A program made the position numbers and the translations under genes. A stretch of DNA of 37,088 bases. Source: a virus (lineage: Duplodnaviria; Caudoviricetes). This document shows positions 6,270 through 37,088 of this stretch, in pieces. The stretch spans positions 1 through 37,088 of the IMG/VR virus record IMGVR_UViG_3300021408_000092. One strand, written 5' to 3'. The notes below the pieces were generated by a model. That model was not told the DNA's origin. It saw only the letters and a list, made by a program, of their open reading frames with translations, and did no database searches. Position 1 is the stretch's first letter; each line of letters begins with the position of its first letter.

Positions 6270-6271
6270 AT

Positions 6272-22886: not shown

Positions 22887-23098
22887 TGGCGTGTGGGTCG
22901 TGTGGTGGGGCTAGGGCTAGGACTGCTGTTGGTGCGGATGGTCAGCAGAGGCAGGTATCGCCTCGCCGAACGAAGTATGTGTGGAATTGGATTCCGGTTG
23001 GTGGCGGTGAGGGGAAAGCGTTTGATTCTGAGCGTGAGGCCCGCGAGTGGCTGAAATCGGGTAATGCGGGGTCGTTGATGGTTGGTCCTGCTGTTTAA
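22886..23098 (+). CDS. Small MACGSCGG protein of the head module
   Basis: TGATG-coupled to the protease; N-terminal CxxC. Confidence 0.7.
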   Translation: MACGSCGGARARTAVGADGQQRQVSPRRTKYVWNWIPVGGGEGKAFDSEREAREWLKSGNAGSLMVGPAV

Positions 23099-23126
23099 TG
23101 GTTGTTGGCGTTTCGCACCGCTGTTG

Positions 23127-23160
23127 GGCCCCCCTTTTTTCTCGTGGTGGAGGGGGGCTC
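23127..23160. terminator. Hairpin between convergent genes
   Basis: GGGCCCCCCTT...GAGGGGGGCTC. Confidence 0.5.
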
Positions 23161-23164
23161 TTCT

Positions 23165-24196
23165 TTATGTTTCTAGTGAGTATTCGATTCCGTCGAGCAT
23201 GATGTAGGGCTGTGTGTTGGCGGCTCCGAGCATTTGTATGTTTCCGTTTTTGCGGATGATGATTCGGATTCCTCCACCTGAGCCCATGGCTACGAAGCCT
23301 CGGTCTTGTAGTGGTACTGATGAGATGGTTGCTGTTCCTACGGTGATGCTGGTGGGGACTGTGGTGGCAATGATTTCGTCTGTTACTCCACCTGTTGTGA
23401 CGGAGTTGATGCGTCCTCTGAGTAGTGCACGTTTCCCGCCGGCGATGATCATGACTTGCGGTGAGTTGGTGTTGTTGGCGCCGTTTGCGTTGGCCGTGTA
23501 TTTCGCGGCTGTTTGTGGGCTGTCGATGGTGATGGGTGTCCATAGTGATTCGTAAAGGTTTGGGCCTAGGACGGGTCCGGTGAAGGTGGCTGTTCCGTTG
23601 CCTAGTACGTAGCCGACTTCGGTTCCGTTGGAGTGGAACCAGCGCGAGGATTTGGATGTTGGTGTTCCGGCGTGGAATTGGTGGGTTGCTTCGCCTTCTT
23701 TGCCTAGGCCGGTTGTGGCTGGTGGGGTGAGGTCTCTGGGTAGGCCGAGTTCGTTGGCGCGCATGGTGTTGAACGTTTGGTACCACAGTTCGATCATGTT
23801 GGCGTCTGCGCTGGTGACGGGGTTGGGTTGGTTGATGCGTAGCCCGACGGTTGATGCGTCGGGTTGGTTGATTACTAGTCCACCGTCGATGATGAGGTTC
23901 CCGGGGATGGTGATGCCGTCTATGCAGGTGACGGGGTCTATGGGGTCCGCTGCCGATATGTCTAGGTCATCGGGTAGGGGGCACATATCTGTTCCGCTGT
24001 CGGTGAAGGTGAGGGCCCCGAACATGGTGCAGAGGTCTTTGCGGGCGTGGAAGTGTTGTGTGATGTAGGTGGAGATGTACACGTTTTGGGCGCCGGCCCA
24101 GCAGATGAGCCTTTGTGACATTTCGTCGAACAGGTTGTTGGTGGTGGGCCATATGCAGGCTGTGTCTGCTGGGACGCCTGGGTGCCGTCGTGCCAT
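23165..24196 (-). CDS. Stand-alone tail fibre / receptor-binding-like protein
   Basis: Thr/Gly/Asn-rich beta shaft; C-terminal WTPITI...PQV...ALLRGRI...IRKNGNI...IMLDGIEY head pattern. Confidence 0.65.
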   Translation of the reverse strand: MARRHPGVPADTACIWPTTNNLFDEMSQRLICWAGAQNVYISTYITQHFHARKDLCTMFGALTFTDSGTDMCPLPDDLDISAADPIDPVTCIDGITIPGNLIIDGGLVINQPDASTVGLRINQPNPVTSADANMIELWYQTFNTMRANELGLPRDLTPPATTGLGKEGEATHQFHAGTPTSKSSRWFHSNGTEVGYVLGNGTATFTGPVLGPNLYESLWTPITIDSPQTAAKYTANANGANNTNSPQVMIIAGGKRALLRGRINSVTTGGVTDEIIATTVPTSITVGTATISSVPLQDRGFVAMGSGGGIRIIIRKNGNIQMLGAANTQPYIMLDGIEYSLET

Positions 24197-24251
24197 GGTG
24201 GGCTCCGTTTGGTTGGGAGTTATGGCACTGATTATTGCTGGTGGTGGTGGT

Positions 24252-24401
24252 TTATTGGGTTTGGATTTTTGGTAGGAGGATTGTGTCGGCGTTGAGATCG
24301 GTTTTTTGTTTGGTTTTGAATAGGTCTGTCAGTTTTTGTATGGGTGTTTTGCTGGGTTTTCTGTGTTTTCCTATCGCGTGTCGTGGTCGGGTGTTTGTCA
24401 T
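24252..24401 (-). CDS. Small basic protein (49 aa; not in the ORF track)
   Basis: Translated by hand as MTNTRPRHAIGKHRKPSK...LLPKIQTQ; starts 2 nt after the upstream stop. Confidence 0.45.
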   Translation of the reverse strand: MTNTRPRHAIGKHRKPSKTPIQKLTDLFKTKQKTDLNADTILLPKIQTQ

Positions 24402-24403
24402 GG

Positions 24404-24571
24404 TTAGACGCTAGACCCTTTTGGGGGTATGGCGCCTGCTAGGCGTTGGTTGGCGTGGTGCTGGTTTTCTTTGATTGTTGCCATGATTTGGCAGTGGGTG
24501 CAGGTGGGTTTGGGGTTTGGTTGGTGTAGGACGTATCCGCAGTGGGTGCAGCGTGGTTTTTGGGTGGTCAT
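24404..24571 (-). CDS. Small zinc-finger protein (55 aa)
   Basis: CTHC..CTHC; RBS AAAGGA. Confidence 0.65.
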   Translation of the reverse strand: MTTQKPRCTHCGYVLHQPNPKPTCTHCQIMATIKENQHHANQRLAGAIPPKGSSV

Positions 24572-24598
24572 GGGGTGTTCCTTTCTTGTAGTTCCACC

Positions 24599-24637
24599 AC
24601 CATAGCACCGTGGCAACGTTGCCACAACGGCTTGAGG
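24599..24637 (-). promoter_or_regulatory. Promoter TTGTGG-17-TATGGT containing the perfect palindrome GTGGCAACGTTGCCAC
   Basis: Palindrome at 24610-24625; the 18 bp TGCCACAACGGCTTGAGG is identical to 27969-27986. Confidence 0.75.
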
Positions 24638-24678
24638 ACATAAAAAATCCGCCCCCAAAAGAGAGCGGACCCGAAAAC

Positions 24679-25023
24679 CTAAACCATCCGTATATGCACC
24701 CCCGCCCACACCGGCGCAGACACAACAGTCAAACCAGTAATAATCGTCCTACCAGCCGCGAACTTGATGTTAGGTGACACATTCACCGGCTTACCTGTCA
24801 GCAGACGGCCTAACAGCTCACCCTCACTAGCCACTCCGCCAGCCTTGATGTGAGTGTCCATCAGGGTTATAGATTTGATTACCCCGGCCGGCTTACCGTG
24901 GTTCCACAAGGTGATAGGTAAATCAATCCACGTATTATGCGCATGGGAGTGGAGTATTTTTCCGTCTTTCGTCGCCTGGTCGAGCACGGCTATCGTCCCG
25001 GACCACTGCAACTCCTTACTCAT
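24679..25023 (-). CDS. Prohead-protease-like paralog (114 aa)
   Basis: Aligns by eye with the N-terminal domain of 21990..22886 (W..IA.L...G, LPI.L, G.I, VS..I, TVV..P); TAATG-coupled start at 25023. Confidence 0.6.
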   Translation of the reverse strand: MSKELQWSGTIAVLDQATKDGKILHSHAHNTWIDLPITLWNHGKPAGVIKSITLMDTHIKAGGVASEGELLGRLLTGKPVNVSPNIKFAAGRTIITGLTVVSAPVWAGVHIRMV

Positions 25024-25403
25024 TACTGTTCGCCTTCTAGTTCGCAGCCGACAGCGCCACACTGTGAGGTCAAACCGTCCTGGATGTGCCAAACATGCTC
25101 TGAGAGGGTCGGCATAACGCGTCCTATCTCTGACGCGGCGGCAGGATATTTTTGAACTAGGAACCTCCCGAGCCAATCCATGGCAGCCGCCCGTTGATCG
25201 TCTGACCCGCCGGATATTTCATCGGCGACTTTTTTCGCCGATTTGCGTGCCGCCACCACGGACGTGCACAGTGGGCTGTATAGGACACGGTCGGACATGT
25301 GTAGCGCCGCCTTGGATTCGCCGTCTTTGGCGAGGTGTTCTTCTGCCCATTTCAGGGCGGCAGTTATTTTGTTTAGCTCACGCAAGATGTCGTCGTTATT
25401 CAT
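25023..25403 (-). CDS. Hypothetical protein
   Basis: 126 aa; overlaps its neighbours in the operon. Confidence 0.65.
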   Translation of the reverse strand: MNNDDILRELNKITAALKWAEEHLAKDGESKAALHMSDRVLYSPLCTSVVAARKSAKKVADEISGGSDDQRAAAMDWLGRFLVQKYPAAASEIGRVMPTLSEHVWHIQDGLTSQCGAVGCELEGEQ

Positions 25404-25620
25404 GGCTATCCTCGCTAGTGATCCAAAATGGGGCGTATCCGAGCCAGACGAGCATCGCGGCGAGGATGTGTGAGCCGGGTGCTTGGCCTTTTGCTAGGCG
25501 CACGAACACGGCAGAGTCGATGTCGGTGGTGCGGCTTACTTGGCGCCACGACAGGTCTAGGCGTTGCCGTTTAGCGTCTAGTGCTTCGTAGAGCGCCGCT
25601 GTGTTGACACGTACGGTCAC
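25396..25620 (-). CDS. XRE/Cro-like helix-turn-helix protein
   Basis: LYEALDAKRQRLDLSWRQVSRTTDIDSAVFVRLAKGQAP. Confidence 0.85.
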   Translation of the reverse strand: MTVRVNTAALYEALDAKRQRLDLSWRQVSRTTDIDSAVFVRLAKGQAPGSHILAAMLVWLGYAPFWITSEDSHE

Positions 25621-25985
25621 CGCTGCTCACCGCCTTGGCACGGATATTCGTGTCCGTCTTCAAATTTGCCCGTGGTCATCGAGCGGTAGCAGGTGCATTG
25701 ATCGGGCCGTCGCTCAACAGGGATTGGCTTGAGTGCTTCATCGTTGGATTTTTCTACGTCGGGTTCACAGGCGCAGGGGCAACGATAAACACCGCCTATT
25801 TCCTCGTAGTAGCAGCTGCACTGCGCGCAGGCTTTCTCGAGCTCCATCACCTTTTGTTGTAGACAGGTTGAGCGGTGTGCCCAGCTCGCTTCTGTGTATC
25901 CGCAGTCGCATAGATATGACGGGTTTTGGATTTGCGTGTTTAGGGAGCCTTTCCCGTGTATTTTACGTTTACCCCGCCGCATCAC
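25617..25985 (-). CDS. Cys-rich hypothetical protein
   Basis: Several CxC/CxxC clusters; coupled to its neighbours. Confidence 0.55.
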   Translation of the reverse strand: MMRRGKRKIHGKGSLNTQIQNPSYLCDCGYTEASWAHRSTCLQQKVMELEKACAQCSCYYEEIGGVYRCPCACEPDVEKSNDEALKPIPVERRPDQCTCYRSMTTGKFEDGHEYPCQGGEQR

Positions 25986-26143
25986 TGTTCACCTTCAAAT
26001 TCGCATCCGCACATGCCTGCTTCGCCCTCGCAAATGTGAAAGTAGTGGGCGCCGCTGTCGGTGTTTTGCGCGACAACCCAGTTGATTAGCCAGTCAAGTG
26101 CACTATCTTCAAGAGATTGCTGTTTTTTGCTTTTACGTGCCAT
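25982..26143 (-). CDS. Small hypothetical protein (53 aa; not in the ORF track)
   Basis: Translated by hand as MARKSKKQ...GMCGCEFEGEQ; fills the operon gap with stop/start overlaps. Confidence 0.55.
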   Translation of the reverse strand: MARKSKKQQSLEDSALDWLINWVVAQNTDSGAHYFHICEGEAGMCGCEFEGEQ

Positions 26144-26466
26144 CACTGCTCACCGCCTATTTCCTCAATGCGGGTTGCGTCTTCCATGTCACAGTTTTCA
26201 ATGAGTAGGCCCATTTCGTTCTTGCCCGTGTCGCGCCAGTCGCGTTCGGCCATGAGCTGCACTGTTTTATGGGTTTCTGATCGCCACGCGACGCCCTCAA
26301 AGATCACCCGGTAACGTTTCCCGTCCTGCATCTGGGCGGGAGAAACCGATTTCTTGTGGTCTTTCCCGCAGTTGAATCCCGTTTTTGTGCATTCGCAGAT
26401 GGAGCAGCATAGGCAGCTGGAGCAGCGGAATCGCTCATCGTGGCATCCCAGTCCGAGGTCAGTCAT
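26143..26466 (-). CDS. Cys-rich hypothetical protein
   Basis: CSSCLCCSICEC cluster; operon context. Confidence 0.6.
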   Translation of the reverse strand: MTDLGLGCHDERFRCSSCLCCSICECTKTGFNCGKDHKKSVSPAQMQDGKRYRVIFEGVAWRSETHKTVQLMAERDWRDTGKNEMGLLIENCDMEDATRIEEIGGEQ

Positions 26467-26911
26467 CGCTATCGTCTCCTAGACGAAAACCTGTCTGGTT
26501 TTCGTAGTCGTCATCCATTTCGGGAGACTCTGCGATATATGCGCGTATCCACGCTAGACATTGGCCAGGTCCGAAATGGAGCGCTGCTACGGCGGCTTCG
26601 ACAATGAGCCGTTTCATGTGGTCCAGTTCCCGTTTCCGCGCCCCGTTGTCGGCCATGAGCGCCTCGATCATTTTGGAACGGTGTTCCGCGTCCTGCTTGT
26701 TAGCTTGGAATCGTCGGGTGAGGCTGTCGCCTTCTTCGTAGACGCTCTCGCGGGCCCGATATTCCTTCAACAGCAACCGCAGGCGCTCGTTTTCCTCGCG
26801 GAGGTCCTCTACGTCGCTTCGGTAGCCAGCGAGTTCTAGCTCTAGCATCTGTTCGCGGGTGATCGTTTCGTCTTCGTCCACTTGGTCCGTTCCTATCTCT
26901 ACGTCAGTCAT
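26459..26911 (-). CDS. Coiled-coil hypothetical protein
   Basis: DLREENERLRLLL heptads; RBS AGGAG. Confidence 0.7.
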   Translation of the reverse strand: MTDVEIGTDQVDEDETITREQMLELELAGYRSDVEDLREENERLRLLLKEYRARESVYEEGDSLTRRFQANKQDAEHRSKMIEALMADNGARKRELDHMKRLIVEAAVAALHFGPGQCLAWIRAYIAESPEMDDDYENQTGFRLGDDSDD

Positions 26912-26927
26912 CGGATGCTCCTAGGGT

Positions 26928-27218
26928 TTATTTGGGGATTGTGGTGAATTTTAGTAGCGCACCGCCGTGGGCGAGGGTGAGCTTGTAGGTGGCTCCCGTG
27001 TCGGTGATGGTCGTGGCGAGGTCTTTAATTAGTTGTGTTACGTCGTCTTCGGGCGTTGTGGAGATGTCGATGGTGAATCGCATCTGGGTTTCAGTGAGGA
27101 CTTCTTCACTGTTTTTGAGGTGCGCGTAGTCGGCGAGTAGCTCGGAGTAGTCGGCTCGTAGTTGTTCGTATTTGGCGATGTCTTGGGGGCTCATGTCTCT
27201 TCTTTCCTTCGCGTTCAT
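26928..27218 (-). CDS. Hypothetical protein
   Basis: ATGA overlap at 27215-27218 (alternative start 27194). Confidence 0.6.
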   Translation of the reverse strand: MNAKERRDMSPQDIAKYEQLRADYSELLADYAHLKNSEEVLTETQMRFTIDISTTPEDDVTQLIKDLATTITDTGATYKLTLAHGGALLKFTTIPK

Positions 27219-27421
27219 TTGCTGGTAACCCACGTGACGAGGGCGTAGATTGCCCATCCGATGAGACCAAGGAATGAGAGCTTCACGAGGGCAGCTCCAA
27301 ACCCGATCAGTTTCCAAAAGAATGGGATTTTAGGGAAGTCGTCGTTTTTGTTTTCGGTTCGGTTTGTTGGTGTGTTCAGTTGGGTGAGGAAGTTTCGTGC
27401 CTCGTACTCTTCGCGTTTCAT
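27215..27421 (-). CDS. Small membrane protein
   Basis: RBS AAGGA; hydrophobic C-terminal half. Confidence 0.6.
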   Translation of the reverse strand: MKREEYEARNFLTQLNTPTNRTENKNDDFPKIPFFWKLIGFGAALVKLSFLGLIGWAIYALVTWVTSK

Positions 27422-27429
27422 GGGGTTCC

Positions 27430-27522
27430 TTAGTTGGTGATCATCCAAACAATGGCGATGAGGGTGGCGCAGATCATGGCTAGGCAGATGATTCCTGCCG
27501 TGGTGTTTTTTTTGTCGTTCAC
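27430..27522 (-). CDS. Very small membrane peptide (30 aa)
   Basis: Translated by hand as MNDKKNTTAGIICLAMICATLIAIVWMITN; GTGA overlap, RBS AGGAG. Confidence 0.5.
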   Translation of the reverse strand: MNDKKNTTAGIICLAMICATLIAIVWMITN

Positions 27523-27731
27523 TGTTTGTCTCCTATTGTTGCCATGGTTTTGGTGGTGAGGTCTTTGATGATGTTCATGCCGTCGACGGGGTGTTGTTTC
27601 TTAATGGCCTCGAGTAGGGCCAGCATGACTGTGGTGAGTGCGTTGCCTAGTCGTTCGTTTTCTGCTTCGAGTGTTTCTATACGGGTGCGGATGTATCGAT
27701 CGGAATAGCTTTCGGTGAGTTCGATTTGCAT
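27519..27731 (-). CDS. Small coiled-coil protein (70 aa)
   Basis: RBS AGGAG before ATG 27731; IETLEAENERLGNAL. Confidence 0.6.
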   Translation of the reverse strand: MQIELTESYSDRYIRTRIETLEAENERLGNALTTVMLALLEAIKKQHPVDGMNIIKDLTTKTMATIGDKQ

Positions 27732-27745
27732 GGTTGCTCCTGTGG

Positions 27746-27916
27746 TTAGAGTTTTGTTGCTGCGATGATGAGGAGGGTTGCGGTGATCGCGCAGGTGACT
27801 GTGGTTGCGGCGGCGAGTCCGGGTGTGATGGGTTTGCGTGGTTTGCCTATTTGGGTGATGTCGACTATGGCGGCTAGGATGTTGAGTGCGGCGAGTATGT
27901 AGAGTGCGTAGTTCAT
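27746..27916 (-). CDS. Small two-helix membrane protein (56 aa)
   Basis: Translated by hand as MNYALYILAAL...IGKPRKPITPGLAA...; RBS AAAGGAG. Confidence 0.65.
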   Translation of the reverse strand: MNYALYILAALNILAAIVDITQIGKPRKPITPGLAAATTVTCAITATLLIIAATKL

Positions 27917-27947
27917 TTTTCTCCTTTATGTTTTTCTGAACAACGTC

Positions 27948-27986
27948 ACCATACCACAGCCACAACGGTGCCACAACGGCTTGAGG
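27948..27986 (-). promoter_or_regulatory. Promoter TTGTGG-17-TATGGT with tandem GCCACAACGG operator boxes
   Basis: GCCACAACGGTGCCACAACGGC at 27959-27980, between divergent genes. Confidence 0.7.
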
Positions 27987-27995
27987 TAGGGGATT

Positions 27996-28226
27996 ATGGA
28001 ACAGGCAGACCTAGACAAAAGATTCACCCAACACGCACCAGACCCGGCGAAAACACAACTTCAGAACACGGTACGAAACACGCTGAAAGCAGCAGCAGAC
28101 GCCGTAAACACCGTCGTCCCCGAAGGCCGGGAAAAAGTGCTGGCCGTCGCGAAGCTCGAAGAGGCCATGTACTGGGCAAACACCGGTATCGCACGGCATG
28201 TTGAAGCCGCACCCGAAGGCGCGTAA
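27996..28226 (+). CDS. Acb2/Tad1-like cyclic-nucleotide sponge domain protein (putative anti-defence)
   Basis: RFTQHAP...VR...VPEGREKVLAVAKLEEAMYWANTGIAR helical-hairpin signature. Confidence 0.72.
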   Translation: MEQADLDKRFTQHAPDPAKTQLQNTVRNTLKAAADAVNTVVPEGREKVLAVAKLEEAMYWANTGIARHVEAAPEGA

Positions 28227-28302
28227 ACTGGGGTTGCAAACAAATTCTGGCTAGCAACGACAGCAGTCAGTACATAGGCAGCCTGAGCCGGTAGGTGAAG
28301 GA

Positions 28303-28345
28303 GAAGCCCCGCATCCCGGCCGGACGGCCAGAGGTGCGGGGCTTC
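28303..28345. terminator. Hairpin between convergent genes
   Basis: GAAGCCCCGCATC...GGTGCGGGGCTTC. Confidence 0.6.
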
Positions 28346-28358
28346 AGTCATTCCCGGT

Positions 28359-28709
28359 CTAGAACATAGGTATAACCAGAAGGTTTGGAGCGTGGAGAGG
28401 CATGACTTCCATTCGCCCATCCAAAAGGACTCGCATGCTAATTGGGTCTCCGCAAGATGCACCCATCTCTCTGATGAAATCTTCCATCAAATCACACTGA
28501 ATGAATGGAAATCTGCATTCGTGTGGCTCTTCCGAATGTCTCTCGTGTGCGATCTCCATGCAGCAACCCCCGGGAGTCAGACCCAGAACTACCGCTTCAC
28601 CAGTTTTGTGCTGCTTCCATTCCCCCATTCCCAACCAGGCGTACCAGAGTGGCGTTCCGACCGGATAGGTGGGTATTACAACGTTGTCACGCTGGGTCTT
28701 GTTGCACAT
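28359..28709 (-). CDS. Hypothetical protein
   Basis: TGATG-coupled to the upstream gene. Confidence 0.55.
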   Translation of the reverse strand: MCNKTQRDNVVIPTYPVGTPLWYAWLGMGEWKQHKTGEAVVLGLTPGGCCMEIAHERHSEEPHECRFPFIQCDLMEDFIREMGASCGDPISMRVLLDGRMEVMPLHAPNLLVIPMF

Positions 28710-29167
28710 CAGAAATCCTTAGCCTCCACTTGCGGTGCACTTTTAAACACATGCTTCATCAAAACTGCCGGTTCAAACTTCTGCCCCAGCTCAGGCCTTT
28801 GGGGATGCCTTTGACCATCAGCAAGCATTCTGATGTGTGCTCTTTGAGCCAGTACCGTGCGCCTGGCATAGCTGCCTTCACTCTCACCGTCAATGTCGGC
28901 GACTGGGATGAAGGAGGATTCCCATCCATGAGAGCGACGCTCCCTGATTTTTACTACCTCTGAGGCAATGTCGTTAGGGTTGATCCACCTGGCCCGGTCC
29001 TCCTGGATTCGGCGGCGGACGAGGGTCTTCAGGGCTTCTAGGCAGTCGGCTAGTGAGAAGTCTCCGATTACCATCTCCCAGGCTTCGACTCCGTATTCTT
29101 CCATCGCCGATTTGGGTCCTGTTTGGCGTGCCATGTTAACGAACTGAACTAGTTGTTTCGGATTCAT
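28709..29167 (-). CDS. Putative helicase loader / replication partner (lambda P-like position)
   Basis: EAWEMVIGDFSLADCLEAL...WINPNDI pattern; ATGA-coupled to the initiator. Confidence 0.65.
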   Translation of the reverse strand: MNPKQLVQFVNMARQTGPKSAMEEYGVEAWEMVIGDFSLADCLEALKTLVRRRIQEDRARWINPNDIASEVVKIRERRSHGWESSFIPVADIDGESEGSYARRTVLAQRAHIRMLADGQRHPQRPELGQKFEPAVLMKHVFKSAPQVEAKDF

Positions 29168-30099
29168 GCTGCACCGCCCATTGTCAGCATTCGGTCCCAC
29201 AGGTTGGCTGGAGCTACACCCGCTGCCTCTTCGGCCTCACGAGACGCTGCACGTTCCAAATACCTGGCGTAGTGAGCCTCGGTACCCAGATCGCCATTAC
29301 GTCGCTGCACGTTGATCTGAGAGCCGTTCCCGGCGCCTTCTCGTTGAGCGACAAGGCGAAGCTGGTCGTACTTCTCACGCAACTTAGGCATCGACAGAAT
29401 GTTGGCTTTCCAGAACTCGTGATTCTGGCACCAAAGGATCGCTGCCTGGATCTGTTGGAAAGTGCGACCGTCACGGTCCAACATGAGCCGAGCTGCATCA
29501 CGCCACTTGTCGGTGATGTTTGGTCTTTTGCTTCCGTTGGCTTCGATGCGGTCAGCTAGGAGTGTGCAAAGAGATTCCACATCGTCTCTTCTGGGCACCA
29601 GGTCGGTGGAGCGCGAAGCGATCTCCGACGAAATGCTTTTATCTTTATCTTTATCTAGAGTCTCTCTTTTAGTATCTCTCTTCTTAGGCGCCTGGTTTAC
29701 CGGCGCCTGGTTTACCGGCGCCTGGTTTTCCGTCGCTGGTTTGACCTGGGCTTTTGCGTTGTTTCCGCTGGTGGCACCGGCGCCTGGTATTGCGCGCACC
29801 TCGGTGGTTGTTCGTATTTTTCCGTCTTCACCTTGGTACTTTTTACTCTCGAATAGCCCTGCCTCCTTCAGCTCGTTTAGGGCGTTTCGGACGGCGTCGC
29901 GGCCTTCTTTGCGCTGACGAGATATGCGGTCAGAAGATATATCCCAACCTTCGGGAAGGCTCATTAGGTAGGTATGTAGCCCCAAAGCTCTCAGGGAAAG
30001 TGAGGGAAGTTGTGACACCTTCCAGAAAGAAGGTGTCCATTCCGGCTCTGGGATTATTTTCTTTAGCTTGGCTGTCTCTTGTGGGTTTTCGTCTGGCAT
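29164..30099 (-). CDS. Replication initiator (lambda O-like; N-terminal wHTH)
   Basis: LSLRALGLHTYLMSLPEGWDIS...EGRDAVRNALNELKEAG N-terminal domain; WRDAARLMLDRDGR...FWKANILSMPKLREKYDQL C-terminal domain; iterons in the linker. Confidence 0.88.
   Translation of the reverse strand: MPDENPQETAKLKKIIPEPEWTPSFWKVSQLPSLSLRALGLHTYLMSLPEGWDISSDRISRQRKEGRDAVRNALNELKEAGLFESKKYQGEDGKIRTTTEVRAIPGAGATSGNNAKAQVKPATENQAPVNQAPVNQAPKKRDTKRETLDKDKDKSISSEIASRSTDLVPRRDDVESLCTLLADRIEANGSKRPNITDKWRDAARLMLDRDGRTFQQIQAAILWCQNHEFWKANILSMPKLREKYDQLRLVAQREGAGNGSQINVQRRNGDLGTEAHYARYLERAASREAEEAAGVAPANLWDRMLTMGGAA
29636..29788. repeat. Iteron array and AT-rich tract: candidate replication origin
   Basis: GGCGCCTGGTTT(A/T)CC x3 in tandem (29687-29731), a degenerate fourth copy, ACCGGCGCCTGGT at 29776-29788, and an AT-rich TTTATC-repeat tract at 29636-29686. 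Confidence 0.75.
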
Positions 30100-30184
30100 G
30101 TGTCTTGCACCTTTAAATAAGGCACGTGACGTTTGGCACTTCCGTTGAGTTCTGCGCCCCCAAGGCGATGGGGTACAATAATCT

Positions 30185-30249
30185 CATCGTGCCGCACCTC
30201 TGACGTGCGGATCCAAAAACCCTCGCTCTAACGAAGCGGGGGTTTTTTT
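30185..30249 (+). ncRNA. Candidate ~65-nt countertranscript antisense to the rep leader
   Basis: -10 TACAAT at 30174-30179, hairpin CCGCAC/GTGCGG, then a terminator stem ending in a T7 run. Confidence 0.5.
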
Positions 30250-30315
30250 CTTGTCTTGATCTTACTCCATTTTGGTTATCGGCGTTTGTGGCGTTTGTGT
30301 TTCACCGATGTGCTG

Positions 30316-30375
30316 AGTGTAGACGAAAACTAATCTGGCCACAACGTTGCCACAACGGCGTGACGGTGGTATGGT
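30316..30375. promoter_or_regulatory. Divergent promoters (rep leftward, early genes rightward) sharing an operator
   Basis: Minus TTGTGG-17-TACACT; plus TTGCCA-17-TATGGT; GCCACAACGTTGCCACAACGGC at 30338-30359 covers both -35 boxes. Confidence 0.78.
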
Positions 30376-30421
30376 TATGAAGTCGAACAGCAACACCACA
30401 CAAAAAACCAAGGAGCCCACC

Positions 30422-30598
30422 ATGAACATCACCGCCACCGAAGCCAAAAACCTCTACCTCGCCAACACCACCACACACAACGGAATCACCACCAAAGACA
30501 TCCACACCCTCGTCGCCGGCGGAGACATCGACACCGACGACCTCGGCATCCCCACCGAAGACATGTGGGCCGTGCTCGCAGACCAAATCAACAGCTAA
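30422..30598 (+). CDS. Small acidic early protein, paralog 1 (58 aa)
   Basis: RBS AAGGAG; ends DTDDLGIPTEDMWAVLADQINS. Confidence 0.75.
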   Translation: MNITATEAKNLYLANTTTHNGITTKDIHTLVAGGDIDTDDLGIPTEDMWAVLADQINS

Positions 30599-30637
30599 CC
30601 CCCTCCACCCCCATTCGCACGGCCCTAGGAGCCCCAC

Positions 30638-30835
30638 ATGACACTCACCGCCCAAGAACTCTCCTCCACCTACCGCACCCACCTATACACCCGCGAACAC
30701 CTCCGCTCCACCGAACTCAACAACAACATGGACCGCATCGAGATCGCCATGGCAGACCTCGATATCGCATGGGACACCTTCCCCACCACCCAACAATGGG
30801 ACGACATCGCCGACCTCATCAACAAAACCAACTGA
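30638..30835 (+). CDS. Small acidic early protein, paralog 2
   Basis: RBS AGGAG; ends FPTTQQWDDIADLINKTN. Confidence 0.7.
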   Translation: MTLTAQELSSTYRTHLYTREHLRSTELNNNMDRIEIAMADLDIAWDTFPTTQQWDDIADLINKTN

Positions 30836-30848
30836 TAAGGACCCCCAC

Positions 30849-31268
30849 ATGACAGACACAACCCTCATATCCGCCGATGCCCAGAAAATCCTCGACCTGG
30901 CAGTCTCCGTCAAAAACACCCTCGACCAACAAAAAAAGACCAAAAAGGACCCCTTCCTCCTCAAGGACCGCCTGAGTGGCGAGTACTCGGGGTATGTCCG
31001 AGCTCTGTCGATCCTCACCGGAATCCGCAGCTACCTCAAAATCCACCAGCTCATCGCACAAACCCAACACCACATCCGCGAGAACGCCATCACCCCCGCC
31101 CAGGTCCGCGACCTCTACAACGGCGCCCCCGCCATCACCCGCGAAGGAATGCCCACCATCACCACCGCAGACATCCACGCCCTCATCGGCGACCACGTCG
31201 ACACCGACGATGACGGTGTTCCCACCGACGACATGTGGGAGGTCCTCGCCAACCAGGTAAACAGCTAG
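30849..31268 (+). CDS. Early protein with a C-terminal paralog-3 domain
   Basis: RBS AAGGA; ends DTDDDGVPTDDMWEVLANQVNS. Confidence 0.75.
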   Translation: MTDTTLISADAQKILDLAVSVKNTLDQQKKTKKDPFLLKDRLSGEYSGYVRALSILTGIRSYLKIHQLIAQTQHHIRENAITPAQVRDLYNGAPAITREGMPTITTADIHALIGDHVDTDDDGVPTDDMWEVLANQVNS

Positions 31269-31301
31269 CCCCGCCCACACACCAAGGACCTAGGAGCCCT
31301 C

Positions 31302-31604
31302 ATGTCTGCACCCACACTCACAAACACCATCCGCCGAACCGAAGCCTGGGAAATCGAAGGCGAGTGCTTCAACATGGACGGAGACTGGTTCTTTCCAACC
31401 GGAACCGTCCCCCCCCCCCCCCCCCCACAAAACCCCCAATGCGCCCAATACGTCATCGATGCCATCCCCACCGCCTACCCCATCCGTGCAGGCATCTGGG
31501 CCGGCATCCGTATCACCGACACCCACAGCACCATGAGCCGCTCCGAATCCCACCAAAAGGCCTACCGTGCTCTCGCCGCTATCGCCACCGGACAGGTCCA
31601 GTGA
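31302..31604 (+). CDS. Hypothetical early protein containing a C18 homopolymer
   Basis: RBS AGGAG; poly-C at 31409-31426 encodes poly-Pro. Confidence 0.6.
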   Translation: MSAPTLTNTIRRTEAWEIEGECFNMDGDWFFPTGTVPPPPPPQNPQCAQYVIDAIPTAYPIRAGIWAGIRITDTHSTMSRSESHQKAYRALAAIATGQVQ

Positions 31605-31644
31605 TCCCCATGAACACTGCCGACGACAACAACTGGTACTAGAA

Positions 31645-31743
31645 ATGAAACCCACAAAAATTCAACACCTAGCCTGGGCAATCTTCTACACATGGATCGC
31701 ATGCTGCGTAGCAGTCCTCATGCTGGCCCTCTCCACCATCTGA
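31645..31743 (+). CDS. Very small membrane peptide (32 aa)
   Basis: Translated by hand as MKPTKIQHLAWAIFYTWIACCVAVLMLALSTI. Confidence 0.45.
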   Translation: MKPTKIQHLAWAIFYTWIACCVAVLMLALSTI

Positions 31744-31749
31744 AAACCA

Positions 31750-31773
31750 AAGGGAGGCCCTAGGGCCTCCCTT
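31750..31773. terminator. Palindromic hairpin between convergent genes
   Basis: AAGGGAGGCCCTAGGGCCTCCCTT is a perfect 24-bp palindrome. Confidence 0.7.
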
Positions 31774-31965
31774 CTACTTTGCGTCCCTCGCCACCCTGTA
31801 CGCCTCAACATCGGCCGGCAAATAACGGCGCCGATTCCCAACCTTGATATACGGCAACACGTCGCGCGGTGTCCTATGCACCGTCGGGATGGAACACGAC
31901 AGGCAGGCAGCTGCCTGGCCGCTCGATAGGTAGCCTCCCGGGAGAGTTTTCATTTCTTGGTTCAT
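31774..31965 (-). CDS. Excisionase/MerR-like (HTH_17) DNA-binding protein
   Basis: YLSSGQAAACLSCSIPTVHR...LPYIKVGNRRRYLPADVEAY; divergent from the transfer module; start at 31965 or 31953. Confidence 0.8.
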   Translation of the reverse strand: MNQEMKTLPGGYLSSGQAAACLSCSIPTVHRTPRDVLPYIKVGNRRRYLPADVEAYRVARDAK

Positions 31966-31978
31966 GCCCACATGATCT

Positions 31979-32920
31979 GCGACAACACCCAAACAAGTCA
32001 ACTTGAGCACCTTAACTAACTTGACTACCTGAACATCGTTGTGCAGACTAGCGACATGACATCACTACGACAAAACATGACATCACTACGACAAAACCTG
32101 TCGCAATGGAGCGACAAGCGACACCAAGCAAAAGCCCGACGCAAAACGATACGACAACTAGCGACATCCCAATCACGACACATCGCAGCCATGGTCGCTG
32201 TCGTTGCAGGCCTCGCCTTTGTCGCAGCAGTCAACTTCGCACTGTCGTTCGCGGGACTCTACGACTTCGGCGACAAACTGTCGGAACTACCAGGAATACT
32301 TCCAGCGTTCGTCCCTGTCGGAGTCGACGGTCTAGCTGTCGCGTCAATGGGCGGCATCTTCATGATGCGACACGCACCACTACGCGTCAGACTCTTCTGC
32401 TGGCTCGTCTTCGCCGCATCACTAGCCGCGTCAATCGCAGGCAATGTGTCGCATGCCGTCACACGCGACCTACATGTCGCAGCCCAATTCGGAAGCGCCG
32501 TATGGCCCCTCTTTGTCGCACTAGCGACACACCTACTAGTCGTCATCATGCGACACATCGAACTAGCGCAACTCGAAACAGCCGACGTGACACCTGTCGC
32601 ACCGCTCAAGCGACGGTCCTGGGTAGTCAAGAACGACAACGACACGACAACGAAACTCAAACCAGCGACACGACAAGCAGCGAAACAACTCACGACAGTC
32701 GCACGACGCGACAACAACACCGACCGCGACTACGCGACACAACGAGCACGCGAAGGCGCGACAGTCACAGAAATCCAACAAGAACTTGTCGCACAAGGCA
32801 GCGACACAAACCGACGCAACATCGAACGCTGGACCAAGCCAATCCGCGACAACGCAGGAGCGACAACATGAGCAACATCCTGATGTTCGCGACAATCGCC
32901 ATCATCGGCTTACTTGTCGC
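31979..32920. repeat. Dense dispersed array of CGACA/TGTCG pentamers, plus a 21-bp tandem duplication (32054-32095)
   Basis: About 39 copies by manual count (~26 forward, ~13 reverse) in ~940 bp. Confidence 0.85.
32056..32871 (+). CDS. DUF2637 / SpdA-like membrane protein with C-terminal HTH
   Basis: Four transmembrane helices with ALSFAGL, PVGVDG, SIAGNVSH and AVWPL motifs; C-terminal GATVTEIQQEL...RRNIERW; promoter TTGACT-17-CAGACT ending 7 nt before ATG 32056. Confidence 0.8.
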   Translation: MTSLRQNMTSLRQNLSQWSDKRHQAKARRKTIRQLATSQSRHIAAMVAVVAGLAFVAAVNFALSFAGLYDFGDKLSELPGILPAFVPVGVDGLAVASMGGIFMMRHAPLRVRLFCWLVFAASLAASIAGNVSHAVTRDLHVAAQFGSAVWPLFVALATHLLVVIMRHIELAQLETADVTPVAPLKRRSWVVKNDNDTTTKLKPATRQAAKQLTTVARRDNNTDRDYATQRAREGATVTEIQQELVAQGSDTNRRNIERWTKPIRDNAGATT

Positions 32921-32987
32921 AGGAATCGTCTCCAAAGAACTTAATGACGCATTCAAGGCCAACCTAGAAGAGGAACGCAACTCATGA
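32868..32987 (+). CDS. Small single-pass membrane protein (39 aa)
   Basis: MSNILMFATIAIIGLLVAGIV...; RBS AGGAG; ATGA overlap. Confidence 0.6.
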   Translation: MSNILMFATIAIIGLLVAGIVSKELNDAFKANLEEERNS

Positions 32988-33199
32988 AAAAGTTTCTGAT
33001 CTACCTAATCGCCCCATTCGTGCTACTCACCGGGATCGCTATCGGAGCCATCGCCGCCACCACAGGACTCGTAGACCCACACGACATACGCGGACTAACC
33101 ACCACACAAATCCTGATAGCAGGCTCACTACTCGGACTAGCAGCCATCGCCATTGGCACCACCGCAACGAAACTCATCCAAAAAGCAGCAGACAAATGA
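32984..33199 (+). CDS. Small two-pass membrane protein
   Basis: Two hydrophobic helices; ATGA overlap. Confidence 0.7.
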   Translation: MKKFLIYLIAPFVLLTGIAIGAIAATTGLVDPHDIRGLTTTQILIAGSLLGLAAIAIGTTATKLIQKAADK

Positions 33200-33267
33200 G
33201 CACTCTTACCACCGTCTTGACGGTCATTACCTCGTTCATCATCGCCTGGATCATAGGAACCCAATGA
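33196..33267 (+). CDS. Hydrophobic mini-protein (23 aa)
   Basis: MSTLTTVLTVITSFIIAWIIGTQ; ATGA overlaps at both ends. Confidence 0.45.
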   Translation: MSTLTTVLTVITSFIIAWIIGTQ

Positions 33268-33461
33268 AAACCTGCCAGCCACACGGCTACAACCCGCCCA
33301 GCAGATGCCCAAACTGCCGAATCCACAAACGCCGACAACGCAAAAAAGCCAGCCAAAAAGGCTGGCAAACCAGACGAGCAAGCATCATCTCAGAAGTAGA
33401 AAACGAACAAGAACCAATCAAAATAAGAGAAGAATTCTCGATCCACGGATGGTTGAGCTAG
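33264..33461 (+). CDS. Small basic zinc-binding-like protein (65 aa)
   Basis: CxxH...CxxC followed by a Lys/Arg-rich helix; ATGA overlap. Confidence 0.55.
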   Translation: MKTCQPHGYNPPSRCPNCRIHKRRQRKKASQKGWQTRRASIISEVENEQEPIKIREEFSIHGWLS

Positions 33462-33579
33462 CAAAATTTGTGGGAGAACCTGCCAGGCGCTAGCGGCGTC
33501 AGTTGTTTAGTGCCTGGAGCTTATCACATAACACCAAATTTGTGCTAACGAAAACTAACAAAGAAAGGCAACAGCAGCT

Positions 33580-35262
33580 ATGGCTGTCAAGGCGGTGCGA
33601 GAAGTGAGCCCCTGGACCATCGGGTCGGGGGTGAAAGTTTGGGAAATGATCAACCTTCCGCCCTTCGTGATTGTGGCGTTCAAGATAATAGGCGCCATAT
33701 TTGCCCTGCTGATCTTGGCTGTACAGCACTACGTGATCACGGCCGCTCTGGTTGTGGCGGTCGGTTTGTCTGTGCAGTTTTGGTCGTGGTGGGGGATGTT
33801 CGCGGGGGTGATACCCCCTGCCACGTACTGGACAGCGGTGGTGCTTCTGACGTTGAGGGGCTCAGAAGCATCGTCTGCCCGCTCGGTCATTCAGGGCATG
33901 TGGCGTATTCGCACCATTAAGAAGATGTGGCAGCCGGTCCTGTTCCAGTTGAAGGTGACGTCTCGTGTCGATAGTGAGGCCGTTGCACCTTTGGTGAATG
34001 TGAAACCGACGGATTCTGGTTTGACGGGGAACATTGTTACGGGTGCTGTCGCTCTATCAGCATCGAAACTGGTCAAGTTGGAGCAGGAATTCGCTTCGGG
34101 GTTTTTCTGTGACCGGGTAACGATCCGTCCTATGTCTCCGTCGATGGCTACTGTTCGTTTTGATTGGGGTCAGCATCTGCGGTCCACGTTCCGTTTGCAT
34201 GAGCTGCCTTCCGTGAAGCAGATTGAAGGCAAACCTGCACGTGTACGTTTCGGTGTCCGCGCGGACGGCAACGCAGCAACGCTAGTTTCGAACATTTCCA
34301 CACTGGTGGGTGGCGTTTCTGGTGCTGGTAAGTCGTCGACGATGTGGTCGTTGATCGCCGGGTATCACGAGGTCGTTCCGATTCGCCTTCGCATCATTGA
34401 CCCGTCTGGCGTTGAGTTCGCAAACGCGAAGAAATATTTAGGTCGGGGCTTGGTCCACGACTACGTGTCTGACCCTAAGCAGCCTGGCGCCCGCAAGTTG
34501 GAAGAGTTTTGGGAGGACTTGGAGGAGGACTTCAACCGCCGTATGGCCCGTGTGGAGGCTTCAGGTCACCGCTGGCATAAGCCGACGGAGGCTGAGCCTT
34601 TGGATGTTGTGATCATTGATGAGATTCTTCCTCTGATTTCTTCGTTGAAGAAGGACCCAATGGATCACATCGTGGGCCGCATCTTGTATTTGGGCCGTAA
34701 GGCCGGGTTTGTGGTGTTGGCTGCTTCGCAGGTTGCGCAGAAGGAAGTGATTGGCCCGATCCGTGACCTGTTTCCGCAGCGTTTGTGTCACCGCACAGGA
34801 AACAGGTACATGACCGACGCGTTCTTGGGCGATGGTGCTGAGAGCGACGGTGCGGCTTGTTCAATGCTCGACGTGGAGCGGGATCAGGGTGTTCTGTATT
34901 TGGCTGTTGATGGACAGTCTGGGTATACGGCGGCGCGATCTGCTTGGGTTTCTGATTCTGATACTGGGCAGATAGCGCAAGGGATGCGTCCAGCTCCGAA
35001 GGTTCAGGAACTTAAAACGAAACCTACTTCTTTGTATGCGTTTCATGACCACAGGGGCGCCCTGCTGTATGTGGGGATCGCTGAGCAGACCCGTCTCCAA
35101 AACCGGTGGGATGAACACAAACGCACCAAACAGTGGTGGGGAGAGGTCCACCAGAAGACGGAACTGTACACGTACCCGGACAGGGAGATGGCCGAAACCG
35201 CCGAGGCGGTAATGATCAAAAAGCAGCGCCCAAAGTACAACAAACAGCACAACATGTCCTAG
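33580..35262 (+). CDS. TraB-like FtsK/SpoIIIE DNA translocase with C-terminal GIY-YIG domain
   Basis: N-terminal transmembrane helices; Walker A GVSGAGKS, IIDPSGVE, Walker B VVIIDE, GRKAG..VLAASQ, RDLFPQRL; C-terminal LYAF..GALLYVGI...RWDEH...AEAVMIK..RPKYN. Confidence 0.88.
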   Translation: MAVKAVREVSPWTIGSGVKVWEMINLPPFVIVAFKIIGAIFALLILAVQHYVITAALVVAVGLSVQFWSWWGMFAGVIPPATYWTAVVLLTLRGSEASSARSVIQGMWRIRTIKKMWQPVLFQLKVTSRVDSEAVAPLVNVKPTDSGLTGNIVTGAVALSASKLVKLEQEFASGFFCDRVTIRPMSPSMATVRFDWGQHLRSTFRLHELPSVKQIEGKPARVRFGVRADGNAATLVSNISTLVGGVSGAGKSSTMWSLIAGYHEVVPIRLRIIDPSGVEFANAKKYLGRGLVHDYVSDPKQPGARKLEEFWEDLEEDFNRRMARVEASGHRWHKPTEAEPLDVVIIDEILPLISSLKKDPMDHIVGRILYLGRKAGFVVLAASQVAQKEVIGPIRDLFPQRLCHRTGNRYMTDAFLGDGAESDGAACSMLDVERDQGVLYLAVDGQSGYTAARSAWVSDSDTGQIAQGMRPAPKVQELKTKPTSLYAFHDHRGALLYVGIAEQTRLQNRWDEHKRTKQWWGEVHQKTELYTYPDREMAETAEAVMIKKQRPKYNKQHNMS

Positions 35263-35271
35263 GAGCACATT

Positions 35272-35958
35272 ATGGCTACACGTACTGCACGCATCAAATC
35301 TCATACACGCACATCGAAGAATGGAAAGGTTCACAAGGTTAAGGCGCATGGCCGGGCGGTTTCTATGTCGGAGATGCTCCAGTCGGTGATGCGTAACCCG
35401 TCGTTGAAGAAGGTCAAGTGGGCTGCGATTGGCTCTGTCGGGCTCACAGGAGCGGTATATGTGCTGTCCACGGCCATGTCCGTAGCAGCTTCTCTGGTGT
35501 GGGCGATCCTCCTGGGCTGTATGGCCGTCATGGCGATGCTGTTAATGACGAAAGGCCAGCGTAAAGCGAAGCGAAAAAAGTTTAGGGAGGCTGCTGCGCT
35601 GTCGGTGGAGCGCCGTTTGAAGCTTTGGACGCACCACCAGGTCGTCAAATATCGGAAACCGGTACCAGCGGCAAAGGCTAAACCAAAGCCGAAGGGTGCC
35701 CCCCGTCCGCAGTCCGCATCTGAAGGAGTCACGCACACCACGCCTTCTGAAGGGGAGTTCATTCCTCCGCCGGCGATGCGTGATCCTCTTGCTCCACGCA
35801 AAACTGCTGCTCAGCTGCGTCCATGCGCGCCCTGTAAAGGAACAGGTGTTCTTACGAAAAAGGGACATATAGCAGGTCATGGAGTTCACCTTGGTGCTGG
35901 TGACGCGGCTGTCACGCACTATCAGTGCCGTGCGTGTTTCGGGCAAGGGAAGGCGTAA
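35272..35958 (+). CDS. Membrane protein with basic N-terminus and C-terminal DnaJ-type zinc finger
   Basis: IKSHTR..GKV.KVKAHGR, two hydrophobic helices, CAPCKGTG and CRACFGQG; RBS AGGAG. Confidence 0.75.
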   Translation: MATRTARIKSHTRTSKNGKVHKVKAHGRAVSMSEMLQSVMRNPSLKKVKWAAIGSVGLTGAVYVLSTAMSVAASLVWAILLGCMAVMAMLLMTKGQRKAKRKKFREAAALSVERRLKLWTHHQVVKYRKPVPAAKAKPKPKGAPRPQSASEGVTHTTPSEGEFIPPPAMRDPLAPRKTAAQLRPCAPCKGTGVLTKKGHIAGHGVHLGAGDAAVTHYQCRACFGQGKA

Positions 35959-36027
35959 TTCGGCTGTTCTGCTGATATACTGAGGTGGTATTCGAGGTGC
36001 TTAGAGTGCGACTTGGATGCTCCTAGG

Positions 36028-36076
36028 AAACCCCGCCCAACTGGACTTGTCATCTACCGGGCGGGGTTTTTTCTTT
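36028..36076 (+). terminator. Rho-independent terminator
   Basis: AAACCCCGCCC...GGGCGGGGTTTTTTCTTT. Confidence 0.75.
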
Positions 36077-36102
36077 GTCCTGCTTTCGATGAGCGGGACA
36101 CA

Positions 36103-36133
36103 GTTGCCACAACATCATCATCTGGGCTATTCT
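36103..36133 (+). promoter_or_regulatory. Capsid operon promoter TTGCCA-18-TATTCT with a GTTGCCACAAC box
   Basis: The operator motif overlaps the -35; about 100 nt upstream of the capsid ATG. Confidence 0.65.
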
Positions 36134-36142
36134 GCCCACAAA

Positions 36143-36209
36143 GTCCTGCTGGTACTCGGTCCGGGGACAACCTGAAGACACGCCCTGTCTGGTACTCGGT
36201 CCGGGGGCG
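36143..36209 (+). repeat. Two tandem hairpins sharing an 18-nt core (CTGGTACTCGGTCCGGGG) in the capsid leader
   Basis: Cores at 36149-36166 and 36189-36206, closed by different stems GTCC/GGAC and CGCCC/GGGCG. Confidence 0.8.
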
Positions 36210-36235
36210 GCAAACCCGCCAGCAAAGGACCCAAC

Positions 36236-37088
36236 ATGCTTGATGACGTTATCAAGGCATATCTATCGCCAGATAAGAAAACGTCCCTTGAAACCGCTCT
36301 GGGCAAGGTCGAAGACCTGGACGCGCTTGCCGCTGAAGCCACCGCGAAAAGCAAAGCCCTCGACGAAAAAGACGCCTCCGACCTCACGGACGATGACGTC
36401 ACCGAGTTGCAAGGCATCGCGGAAATCCTGAAATCTGTTCGTTCTATCCGCGCAGAGGCCGCCAAGAAGGCCGCCGACGATCTGGTGGCCGAATCTCAGA
36501 AGAGCGAACGCCTGGAAAAGGCCGAAGCGGCTAAGCAGAGCATCGCTGACCTGGGAAAAGAGCCTGAGAAGGCCGTAGAGGCCCCAGCGAAGGAAGACCC
36601 ACAGCCTGACACCCCCGTGGCGAAAGCCGAACCAGTACAGGAGCCCGCAACCATGCCCGAACCGCAGACGGAACCCGTCGCCGAAACCAAAGAACTCGTC
36701 GGCGCCGGTGTCGGCGGCAACGAACAGTTTGCGGTGTCCTCTCTAACATCCCCTCCTCCCGTAGCTGTCGGAGGACTGGTAGGCAGCAAACTGAATCGCA
36801 TGTTCGCCGTCGACAGCGGTGGCGCTGCAACATCACGCAAGTTTGATGCGATGCTCGATGTGGGTTCCGCTGTCATGTCGGCGCTCGAATCGCCGATGCG
36901 CGGCTTCGGGAAAAACGTCATCGCCCAGTACAAGCGCGACGACCTGGACGAGTTTTCGGTGTGGGGCCGCGACAGCGACTCTGAGGTCATCGAGAAGGTC
37001 ACTGCAAAGCTTCCGGTTTGGGACCGGACGGCCGGGCAGTACGCGGCCGGATGGTGTGCACCTTCTGAAACCCTCTACGAACTTTGCC
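36236..37088 (+). CDS. Major capsid (hexamer) protein, N-terminal part with scaffold-like region; ~588 aa when joined to 131..1044
   Basis: ATG 36236 after AAAGGA; open to the window end; coiled-coil and Pro/Glu-rich N-terminus; in frame with position 1. Confidence 0.88.
   Translation, partial: MLDDVIKAYLSPDKKTSLETALGKVEDLDALAAEATAKSKALDEKDASDLTDDDVTELQGIAEILKSVRSIRAEAAKKAADDLVAESQKSERLEKAEAAKQSIADLGKEPEKAVEAPAKEDPQPDTPVAKAEPVQEPATMPEPQTEPVAETKELVGAGVGGNEQFAVSSLTSPPPVAVGGLVGSKLNRMFAVDSGGAATSRKFDAMLDVGSAVMSALESPMRGFGKNVIAQYKRDDLDEFSVWGRDSDSEVIEKVTAKLPVWDRTAGQYAAGWCAPSETLYELC
36959..37088 (+). repeat. Terminal direct repeat matching 1..130
   Basis: 129 of 130 positions identical. Confidence 0.95.

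Follow-up and report, generated by a model that had tools for sequence, protein, structure and literature searches.

A phage DUF2637 membrane gene is filled with a short DNA word that its own helix-turn-helix domain probably reads

The window, a 37,088-nucleotide stretch of DNA analysed over its whole length, derives from a tailed phage of soil metagenomes. Since its final 126 bases repeat positions 5-130 and a capsid ORF is split over the contig ends, the window is very probably a complete circular genome, despite a CheckV completeness figure of 66%. The host would be an actinomycete, judging from the distribution of the DUF2637 family. Standard maintenance genes went undetected: the window yielded no tyrosine integrase or resolvase, no ParA/ParB match (PF13614 or PF02195) at E 0.1, and no identifiable immunity repressor. 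A lambda O-like replication initiator (29164-30099, minus strand; phrog_391, E 2.5e-28) is encoded about 1.9 kb upstream of, and divergently from, the DUF2637 gene studied here. The gene order is odd, in that replication and transfer genes fill some 13 kb (22886-36236) between the portal/MuF genes and the major capsid gene. An Acb2/Tad1 hairpin-domain anti-defence gene (PF24729, E 7e-12) lies on the plus strand at 27996-28226 with its neighbours on the opposite strand, and a long C run at 31408-31427, which forms a polyproline tract in ORF 31302-31604, may be a slippage site or an assembly error.

The DUF2637 gene (32041-32871, plus strand) encodes a membrane protein of up to 276 aa that matches phrog_733 and PF10935 (E 2e-8, 34.7 bits against a gathering cut-off of 22.8). 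Its start is uncertain (GTG 32041, or ATG 32056, 32077 or 32191), which gives a product of 226-276 aa. AlphaFold, run with a 124-row alignment (pLDDT 87), predicted an N-terminal helix, four long hydrophobic helices taken as membrane helices (residues ~48-172; 32182-32556, plus strand), a disordered linker of about 45 residues, and a C-terminal three-helix domain (32719-32862, plus strand), which structure comparison also suggested to be a helix-turn-helix (HTH) and whose predicted recognition helix, RRNIERW, spans residues 258-264. The HTH domain modelled alone again gave three helices (pLDDT 87), and its best structural matches were transposase HTHs (Mos1 and SETMAR; Z 6.4, rmsd 2.4, 51-52 aligned), which are modest and below the trust level of the tool. 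No Pfam HTH family matched the copy in the window protein, and PF13384 is present in its close homologs P0009 and P0010. Foldseek against the PDB returned no significant match for the full protein or the HTH, and designed proteins were the sole matches in a PDB sequence search. As a predicted homotrimer, the membrane part associated head to tail with a score of 0.44 against 0.00 for the best control (pLDDT 78 or more, contacts agreeing to 89% or more). In a calibration on two copies, 20 of 30 solved homodimers pass the score mark, as does 1 of 23 monomers; three copies lie outside this calibration. An overlapping 293-aa ORF (32106-32987) has no family match and was discarded as a shadow frame.

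Downstream, three small overlapping hydrophobic ORFs of 39, 71 and 23 aa (32868-33267, plus strand) are Spd-like by size and position only, and no Pfam or PHROG family matched the 71-aa ORF. They are followed by an FtsK/TraB-like membrane ATPase (33580-35262, plus strand; phrog_1358, E 2e-13), whose residues 481-558 match endonuclease phrogs, with PF01541 below its cut-off. Its C-terminus is thus of the GIY-YIG type where pIJ101 Tra, used as a control, shows a MarR-like winged helix, and we take the catalytic-type Y, R, E and N residues, as judged by eye, to be present. Stand-alone GIY-YIG genes also lie close to the DUF2637 gene in two related loci (L014 and L015), and in a third (L003) the ORF after TraB is GIY-YIG-like. 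Upstream, the segment 31962-32049 (plus strand) contains an inverted pair, AGTCAA/TTGACT (31996-32026), besides one GCGACA, and is partly conserved in related contigs from the same samples, which then split from 32049 into a different gene start. This segment is a candidate promoter/operator; a promoter scan found no sigma-70 site on the plus strand, and none of the matches listed was an RNA dataset carrying the sequence.

We then investigated the short word that fills the DUF2637 gene. The first-pass annotation had estimated about 39 CGACA/TGTCG pentamers in both orientations over some 940 bp, against 2-3 expected by chance, with sharp thinning outside the gene. We counted exactly 39 within 31979-32920 (26 on the plus and 13 on the minus strand; 26 of the 39 as GCGACA; consensus roughly W-R-CGACA), whereas the rest of the window, with this array left out, averages 2.7 per 942 bp and never exceeds 6, in agreement with that description. 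No other 5-mer in the window forms so extreme a local cluster (Poisson log10 p -30.6 for the array). ORF 32041-32871 contains 36 of the copies; the others lie upstream of it (31980) and within the next small gene (32890 and 32915), namely the 39-aa ORF with its two copies, and 38 of the 39 are downstream of the earliest start codon. As had been claimed, the words fall in different reading frames, five of the six possible frames being occupied, and the frame that forces Cys-Arg holds zero copies in all six array-bearing genes described below. In the membrane-helix part the words are mostly spelled TGTCG (Val-Ala, Leu-Ser). No constant spacing separates the words, the intervals being irregular in the window and in the other array genes, and a perfect TGTCGCGACA palindrome is absent from the window. 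Direct reading of the sequence also revealed an exact tandem duplication of 21 bp (32055-32096, plus strand), by which one motif copy was gained and the peptide MTSLRQN doubled.

The enrichment is selection-like. Three null models, with 3000 draws each, were applied to ORF 32041-32871: synonymous codons taken from the other genes of the phage gave 4.7 +/- 2.0 copies (maximum 12), reshuffling of the gene's own synonymous codons gave 11.6 +/- 2.3 (maximum 19), and shuffling of the codon order gave 4.2 +/- 1.9 (maximum 11), compared with the 36 observed. The codon-shuffled controls proposed in the first-pass annotation thus left the excess standing. The array gene, which is unusual in its codon use, fills 36 of its 43 encodable word positions, against 53 of 524 across 20 other genes of the phage, and scarcely uses near-miss words (GGACA 0/13, AGACA 0/23, TGACA 3/26). 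Furthermore, 13 of the word sites sit in the conserved membrane region through synonymous choices. Among the matches listed, contigs from a second study are identical across the array gene, which argues against an assembly artefact. A reading of the array as an RNA structure was set aside on the irregular spacing and the context-driven orientation of the words.

We next examined relatives of the gene. From 58 profile hits, removal of 20 duplicates, 2 truncated genes and one HTH-only ORF (L105) left 35 genes. CGACA was the top 5-mer, with 15-49 copies, in all six genes that encode an ER helix, a recognition helix containing E-R (the window gene and those of L003, L005, L008, L010 and L015), whereas none of the other 29, many of them distant or without an HTH, exceeded 6 copies. 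The association of the ER helix with the CGACA array gave a Fisher p of 6e-7 over the 35 genes, a post hoc value on genes that are not independent, the ER rule having first been spotted on the very six genes that score it. Among the close HTH-bearing homologs alone, the array is found in 6/6 ER genes and 0/5 others. The six array genes share 27-68% identity in the membrane region and come from phages spanning about 56-72% gene GC; they are split over the membrane-domain tree, where a single clade was rejected (p-AU 0.02) and L015 is the sister of the array-less L014. Because any pair of the six genes has just 0-7 word sites in common in the membrane region, it is the density of the array that is maintained, while the positions of the sites turn over. 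The orientation of the words follows the protein: TGTCG outnumbers CGACA by 23:6 in hydrophobic stretches, and CGACA outnumbers TGTCG by 106:38 in polar stretches of the six genes. This blindness to orientation fits a double-stranded DNA site that may be read in either direction.

The association was also visible at the protein level. GCGACA-encodable sites per 100 aa had a median of 9.3 in 37 ER proteins, four of them with genes already scored, and 5.2 in 44 proteins with other HTHs (p 1.6e-7; GCGACA ranked first among 151 hexamers). Excluded from this comparison were 70 proteins in which no helix pattern could be recognised, and the difference persisted when the HTH was removed. The ER state changed 17 times on the tree, and six well-supported independent pairs gave, in a phylogeny-controlled and underpowered test, 3.6 agreements, 0.0 disagreements and 2.4 ties on average (p 0.125). 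Retrieval by the helix pattern alone yielded one true gene in one hit for ER and one in ten hits for QR; the ER gene (L181) fills 9 of 31 sites against a background of 58 of 615, a weak positive, and the QR gene (L187) fills 4 of 27, in the right direction and weakly.

Other relatives show fainter arrays of other words. These include CGGGCA (L004) and GACCA (L006), as well as GGACA in L002, L009 and L012 (7/21, 10/21 and 8/26, weak against a 13% background); the ER gene of L003 likewise fills 7 of 26 GGACA positions. On the Streptomyces plasmid NZ_CP104318, a DUF2637 gene whose C-terminus differs (L047, 3647-4936) contains 30 GGTCA/TGACC in its 3' half. In DUF2637-like HTH genes of two cultured phages, marginal excesses were seen for CTGAGC in phiC31 gp25 (L194, 3292-4008; 9 against 3.9 shuffled) and for CGACGC in gp37 of phage Whack (L172; 11 against 3.7 shuffled). 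Most of the distant DUF2637 genes, including the HTH-bearing L173, L176 and L014, have no clear array, and pIJ101 spdB has none. The first-pass annotation had asked whether each homolog carries its own k-mer that co-varies with the HTH: the word indeed tracks the helix, but distant ER homologs share one word instead of each having its own. No homologs were returned by a viral-contig scan with a single protein, a phage tblastn with the window protein or a genome scan with query A1, and a genome scan with query A2 gave one truncated locus. An unspecific triple-motif scan of viral contigs gave 123 loci, the densest with 15 CGACA per 800 bp, none with a DUF2637 gene.

The word also occurs outside the DUF2637 genes. 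Second arrays lie 1.2-2.4 kb away in three loci: in L003 within the 3' half of the TraB-like gene, and in L010 and L015 within non-coding stretches, where they are converging and oriented. They show that the word marks the wider transfer region as well. In L010 (~2340-2480) and L015 (~6220-6370), several TGTCG are followed by a common core, CCCCAGGTCA..AGGGGGG, and then by several CGACA, and no converging array of this kind is present in the window. L010 additionally has a perfect TGTCGCGACA 5' of its gene, 11 words in the 200 bp before the gene, one word just before the start codon, and an 18-bp tandem repeat in the linker. In most of the loci whose flanks are long enough, TraB-like genes lie near the homolog. 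The C-termini of the TraB proteins beside the same word differ, however, with GIY-YIG in the window, an end soon after the ATPase in L003 and differing domains in L010 and L015, and L005 combines a strong array with no TraB within 5 kb. Since the TraB C-termini vary or TraB is absent while the DUF2637 helix is constant, TraB is unlikely to be the reader of the word. Weak arrays may go with integrases, as suggested by their presence in L002, L014 and L181 and their absence from the window, G002 and G005, in a small set of partly incomplete genomes.

Because distant relatives with the same HTH tail use the same word, the array words are probably sites read by the gene's own HTH, and the co-variation of helix and word likewise suggests that the claim of a gene written in its own sites was probably right. 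We propose that the HTH would read CGACA and that the predicted oligomers in the membrane would hold on to numerous short sites together; fixed spacing would be unnecessary, because the oligomers would supply avidity through flexibly linked heads. The circular phage DNA would thereby be held at the host membrane. Such a tether could keep an extrachromosomal genome from being lost by the host and could offer its DNA to the neighbouring TraB-like pump, which has no sequence reader of its own, so that the DNA could spread from one compartment or cell to another. With the address inside the gene, tether and address would form one portable module whose specificity changes jointly. We treat retention and spread as one function because stability and spread are difficult to tell apart in mycelial hosts (PMC4170104). 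To this reading as a whole, in which membrane oligomers bound to their own HTH sites tether the circular DNA, we assign a probability of roughly 0.55. A wider version is tentative and rather doubtful: one-gene anchors of this type would be widespread in actinophages, each a ring-forming membrane protein with its own gene as the centromere, helix and word would co-evolve (ER reading CGACA, other helices other words), the protein would give specificity in trans to a reader-less TraB, and a genome with neither integrase nor Par genes would persist and move without virions.

The closest parallel in logic is SpdA2/sps of plasmid pIJ101, in which a protein also has sites in its own gene, as those proposed here. 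SpdA2, a protein of 135 aa with no membrane segment, recognises a 12-bp palindrome present in 2-3 copies within its own coding sequence and stabilises pIJ101, and synonymous removal of the sites lowers stability (PMC4170104); the available text of that report describes no NTPase partner. The two differ in build, since SpdA2 binds DNA through its N-terminal region, whereas the array protein has four membrane helices and a predicted C-terminal HTH, and in their sites, 2-3 copies of one conserved 12-bp palindrome as opposed to about 36 unspaced 5-6-mers, without constant inverted spacing, whose word varies with the helix. SpdA proteins are also shorter (117-163 aa, against 226-276 aa), and no homology to the SpdA N-terminal domain was detectable (hhalign probability 0.7%). 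The second parallel, SpdB2, is a membrane Spd protein reported to bind DNA non-specifically (PMC4447253), and from what these two sources state, the first-pass description of SpdA as a membrane DNA-binding protein merged the soluble SpdA2 with the membrane SpdB2 (PMC4170104, PMC4447253). The array protein resembles SpdB2/SpdB of plasmids pSVH1 and pIJ101 as a four-helix oligomeric membrane protein near TraB, with its helices and oligomer predicted, but would bind a specific word. SpdB2 homologues in phages have been credited to the phiC31 genome, with the gene unnamed in the available text (PMC4447253), and phiC31 gp25 matched the DUF2637 family profile in our analysis (E 3e-8 in a two-sequence search; Foldseek E 8e-4). 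No significant match to the profile was obtained for pIJ101 SpdB, and phiC31 gp25 is thus the only Spd-type relative for which the comparison of sequences indicates homology.

The clt locus, 50-175 bp of mostly non-coding direct repeats read by the winged helix of TraB (PMC3583192, PMC4170104), shares with the array short repeated words near an FtsK-like pump. It is compact and directly repeated, whereas the array comprises 26 plus and 13 minus words over 940 bp with a coding overprint of 0.9 kb, and the window's TraB-like protein has GIY-YIG in place of the winged-helix reader. StbA/stbS of R388 combines a single HTH protein with a centromere-like repeat and no plasmid NTPase, and links segregation with conjugation (bioRxiv 10.1101/2022.04.29.490116), which makes it a functional analogue of the array module as proposed here. 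StbA has a PadR-like N-terminal HTH, with no membrane domain described in the available text, unlike the membrane helices and C-terminal HTH of the array protein, and Foldseek placed the two HTHs together at a non-significant E of 2. ParABS differs in relying on a ParA ATPase and ParB, neither of which was detected in the window (E 0.1); as the first-pass annotation suggested, the array might take the place of such a system.

Four alternatives and a neutral origin were weighed against the tether. The same HTH-bound sites might serve autoregulation or self-titration, with bound protein blocking transcription of the gene and its operon and so limiting a potentially toxic pore-forming protein. 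This agrees with all of the co-variation evidence, with the one site upstream of the gene in the window, with the words that crowd the region before the L010 gene up to its start codon, and with the formation of pores by SpdB2 (PMC4447253). It remains improbable, since 38 of the 39 sites lie past the earliest start, dozens of sites far exceed the needs of repression, and the second arrays of L003, L010 and L015 stand 1.2-2.4 kb off.

Membrane anchoring of replicating DNA has a precedent in p16.7 of phi29, and the HTH-borne tether could anchor the phage DNA during lytic growth and have no part in inheritance or spread. The window has neither an identified integrase nor an identified repressor, the distance to its replication initiator is 1.9 kb, and an HTH_36 gene in L008 likewise runs divergently from the array gene there, although it showed no pairwise similarity to the window initiator. 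We consider lytic anchoring quite unlikely, because the array gene heads a TraB/Spd-like cluster, TraB-like genes are near the homolog in most well-flanked loci, and members of the family are found on plasmids too.

In line with the clt/TraB half of the first-pass proposal, the array might instead be a clt-like loading site for the TraB-like translocase and not for the membrane-HTH protein. Short repeats, with a possible overlap with tra, are typical of clt (PMC3583192), and the second arrays in the TraB-like gene of L003 and in the non-coding DNA of L010 and L015 would suit such a site. That half did not hold up well and is very unlikely: the TraB-like proteins of the window and L003 have no winged-helix reader, those of L010 and L015 differ in their C-termini beside the same word, TraB is missing from the vicinity in L005, and the word tracks the DUF2637 helix in a mixed orientation, unlike the direct repeats of clt. 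It is similarly hard to credit that the array serves a host protein, such as a nucleoid, defence or modification factor, as a decoy or landing pad; the sharing of one word by phages of about 56-72% gene GC would be compatible with a host reader, but the word is limited to the DUF2637 gene with its neighbours, and what it tracks is the helix of the phage protein itself. Finally, a neutral outcome of slippage, low-complexity linker repeats or local codon bias, to which the duplication at 32055-32096, the tandem repeat in the L010 linker and the unusual codon use might point, is largely refuted by the 13 synonymously chosen sites in the conserved membrane region, the own-codon maximum of 19 against 36 and the near absence of near-miss words.

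The preferred reading, a tether bound to its own sites, would give the large, uncharacterised DUF2637 family (1503 representatives, E up to 0.001) a testable, sequence-specific role. Among the papers listed by a literature search, none was seen to report motif arrays in DUF2637 genes. What is new is one word common to divergent phages and apparently tied to specific helix residues, together with its imprint at the protein level and a complete genome with neither integrase nor Par genes whose TraB is reader-less. The helix-to-word code would be legible from sequence alone, and the locus makes a strong case of dual coding, in which a DNA signal has measurably shifted a protein sequence. If true, the tether would account for the persistence of some actinophages that have neither integrase nor Par system, and it bears on how Spd proteins link DNA to the TraB machinery; the Streptomyces plasmid gene of L047 offers a cultured test case. 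Short HTH-less DUF2637-like membrane proteins encoded near an integrase (L180 and many Mycobacterium phage records) are annotated as 'excisionase', a label that is probably a misannotation.
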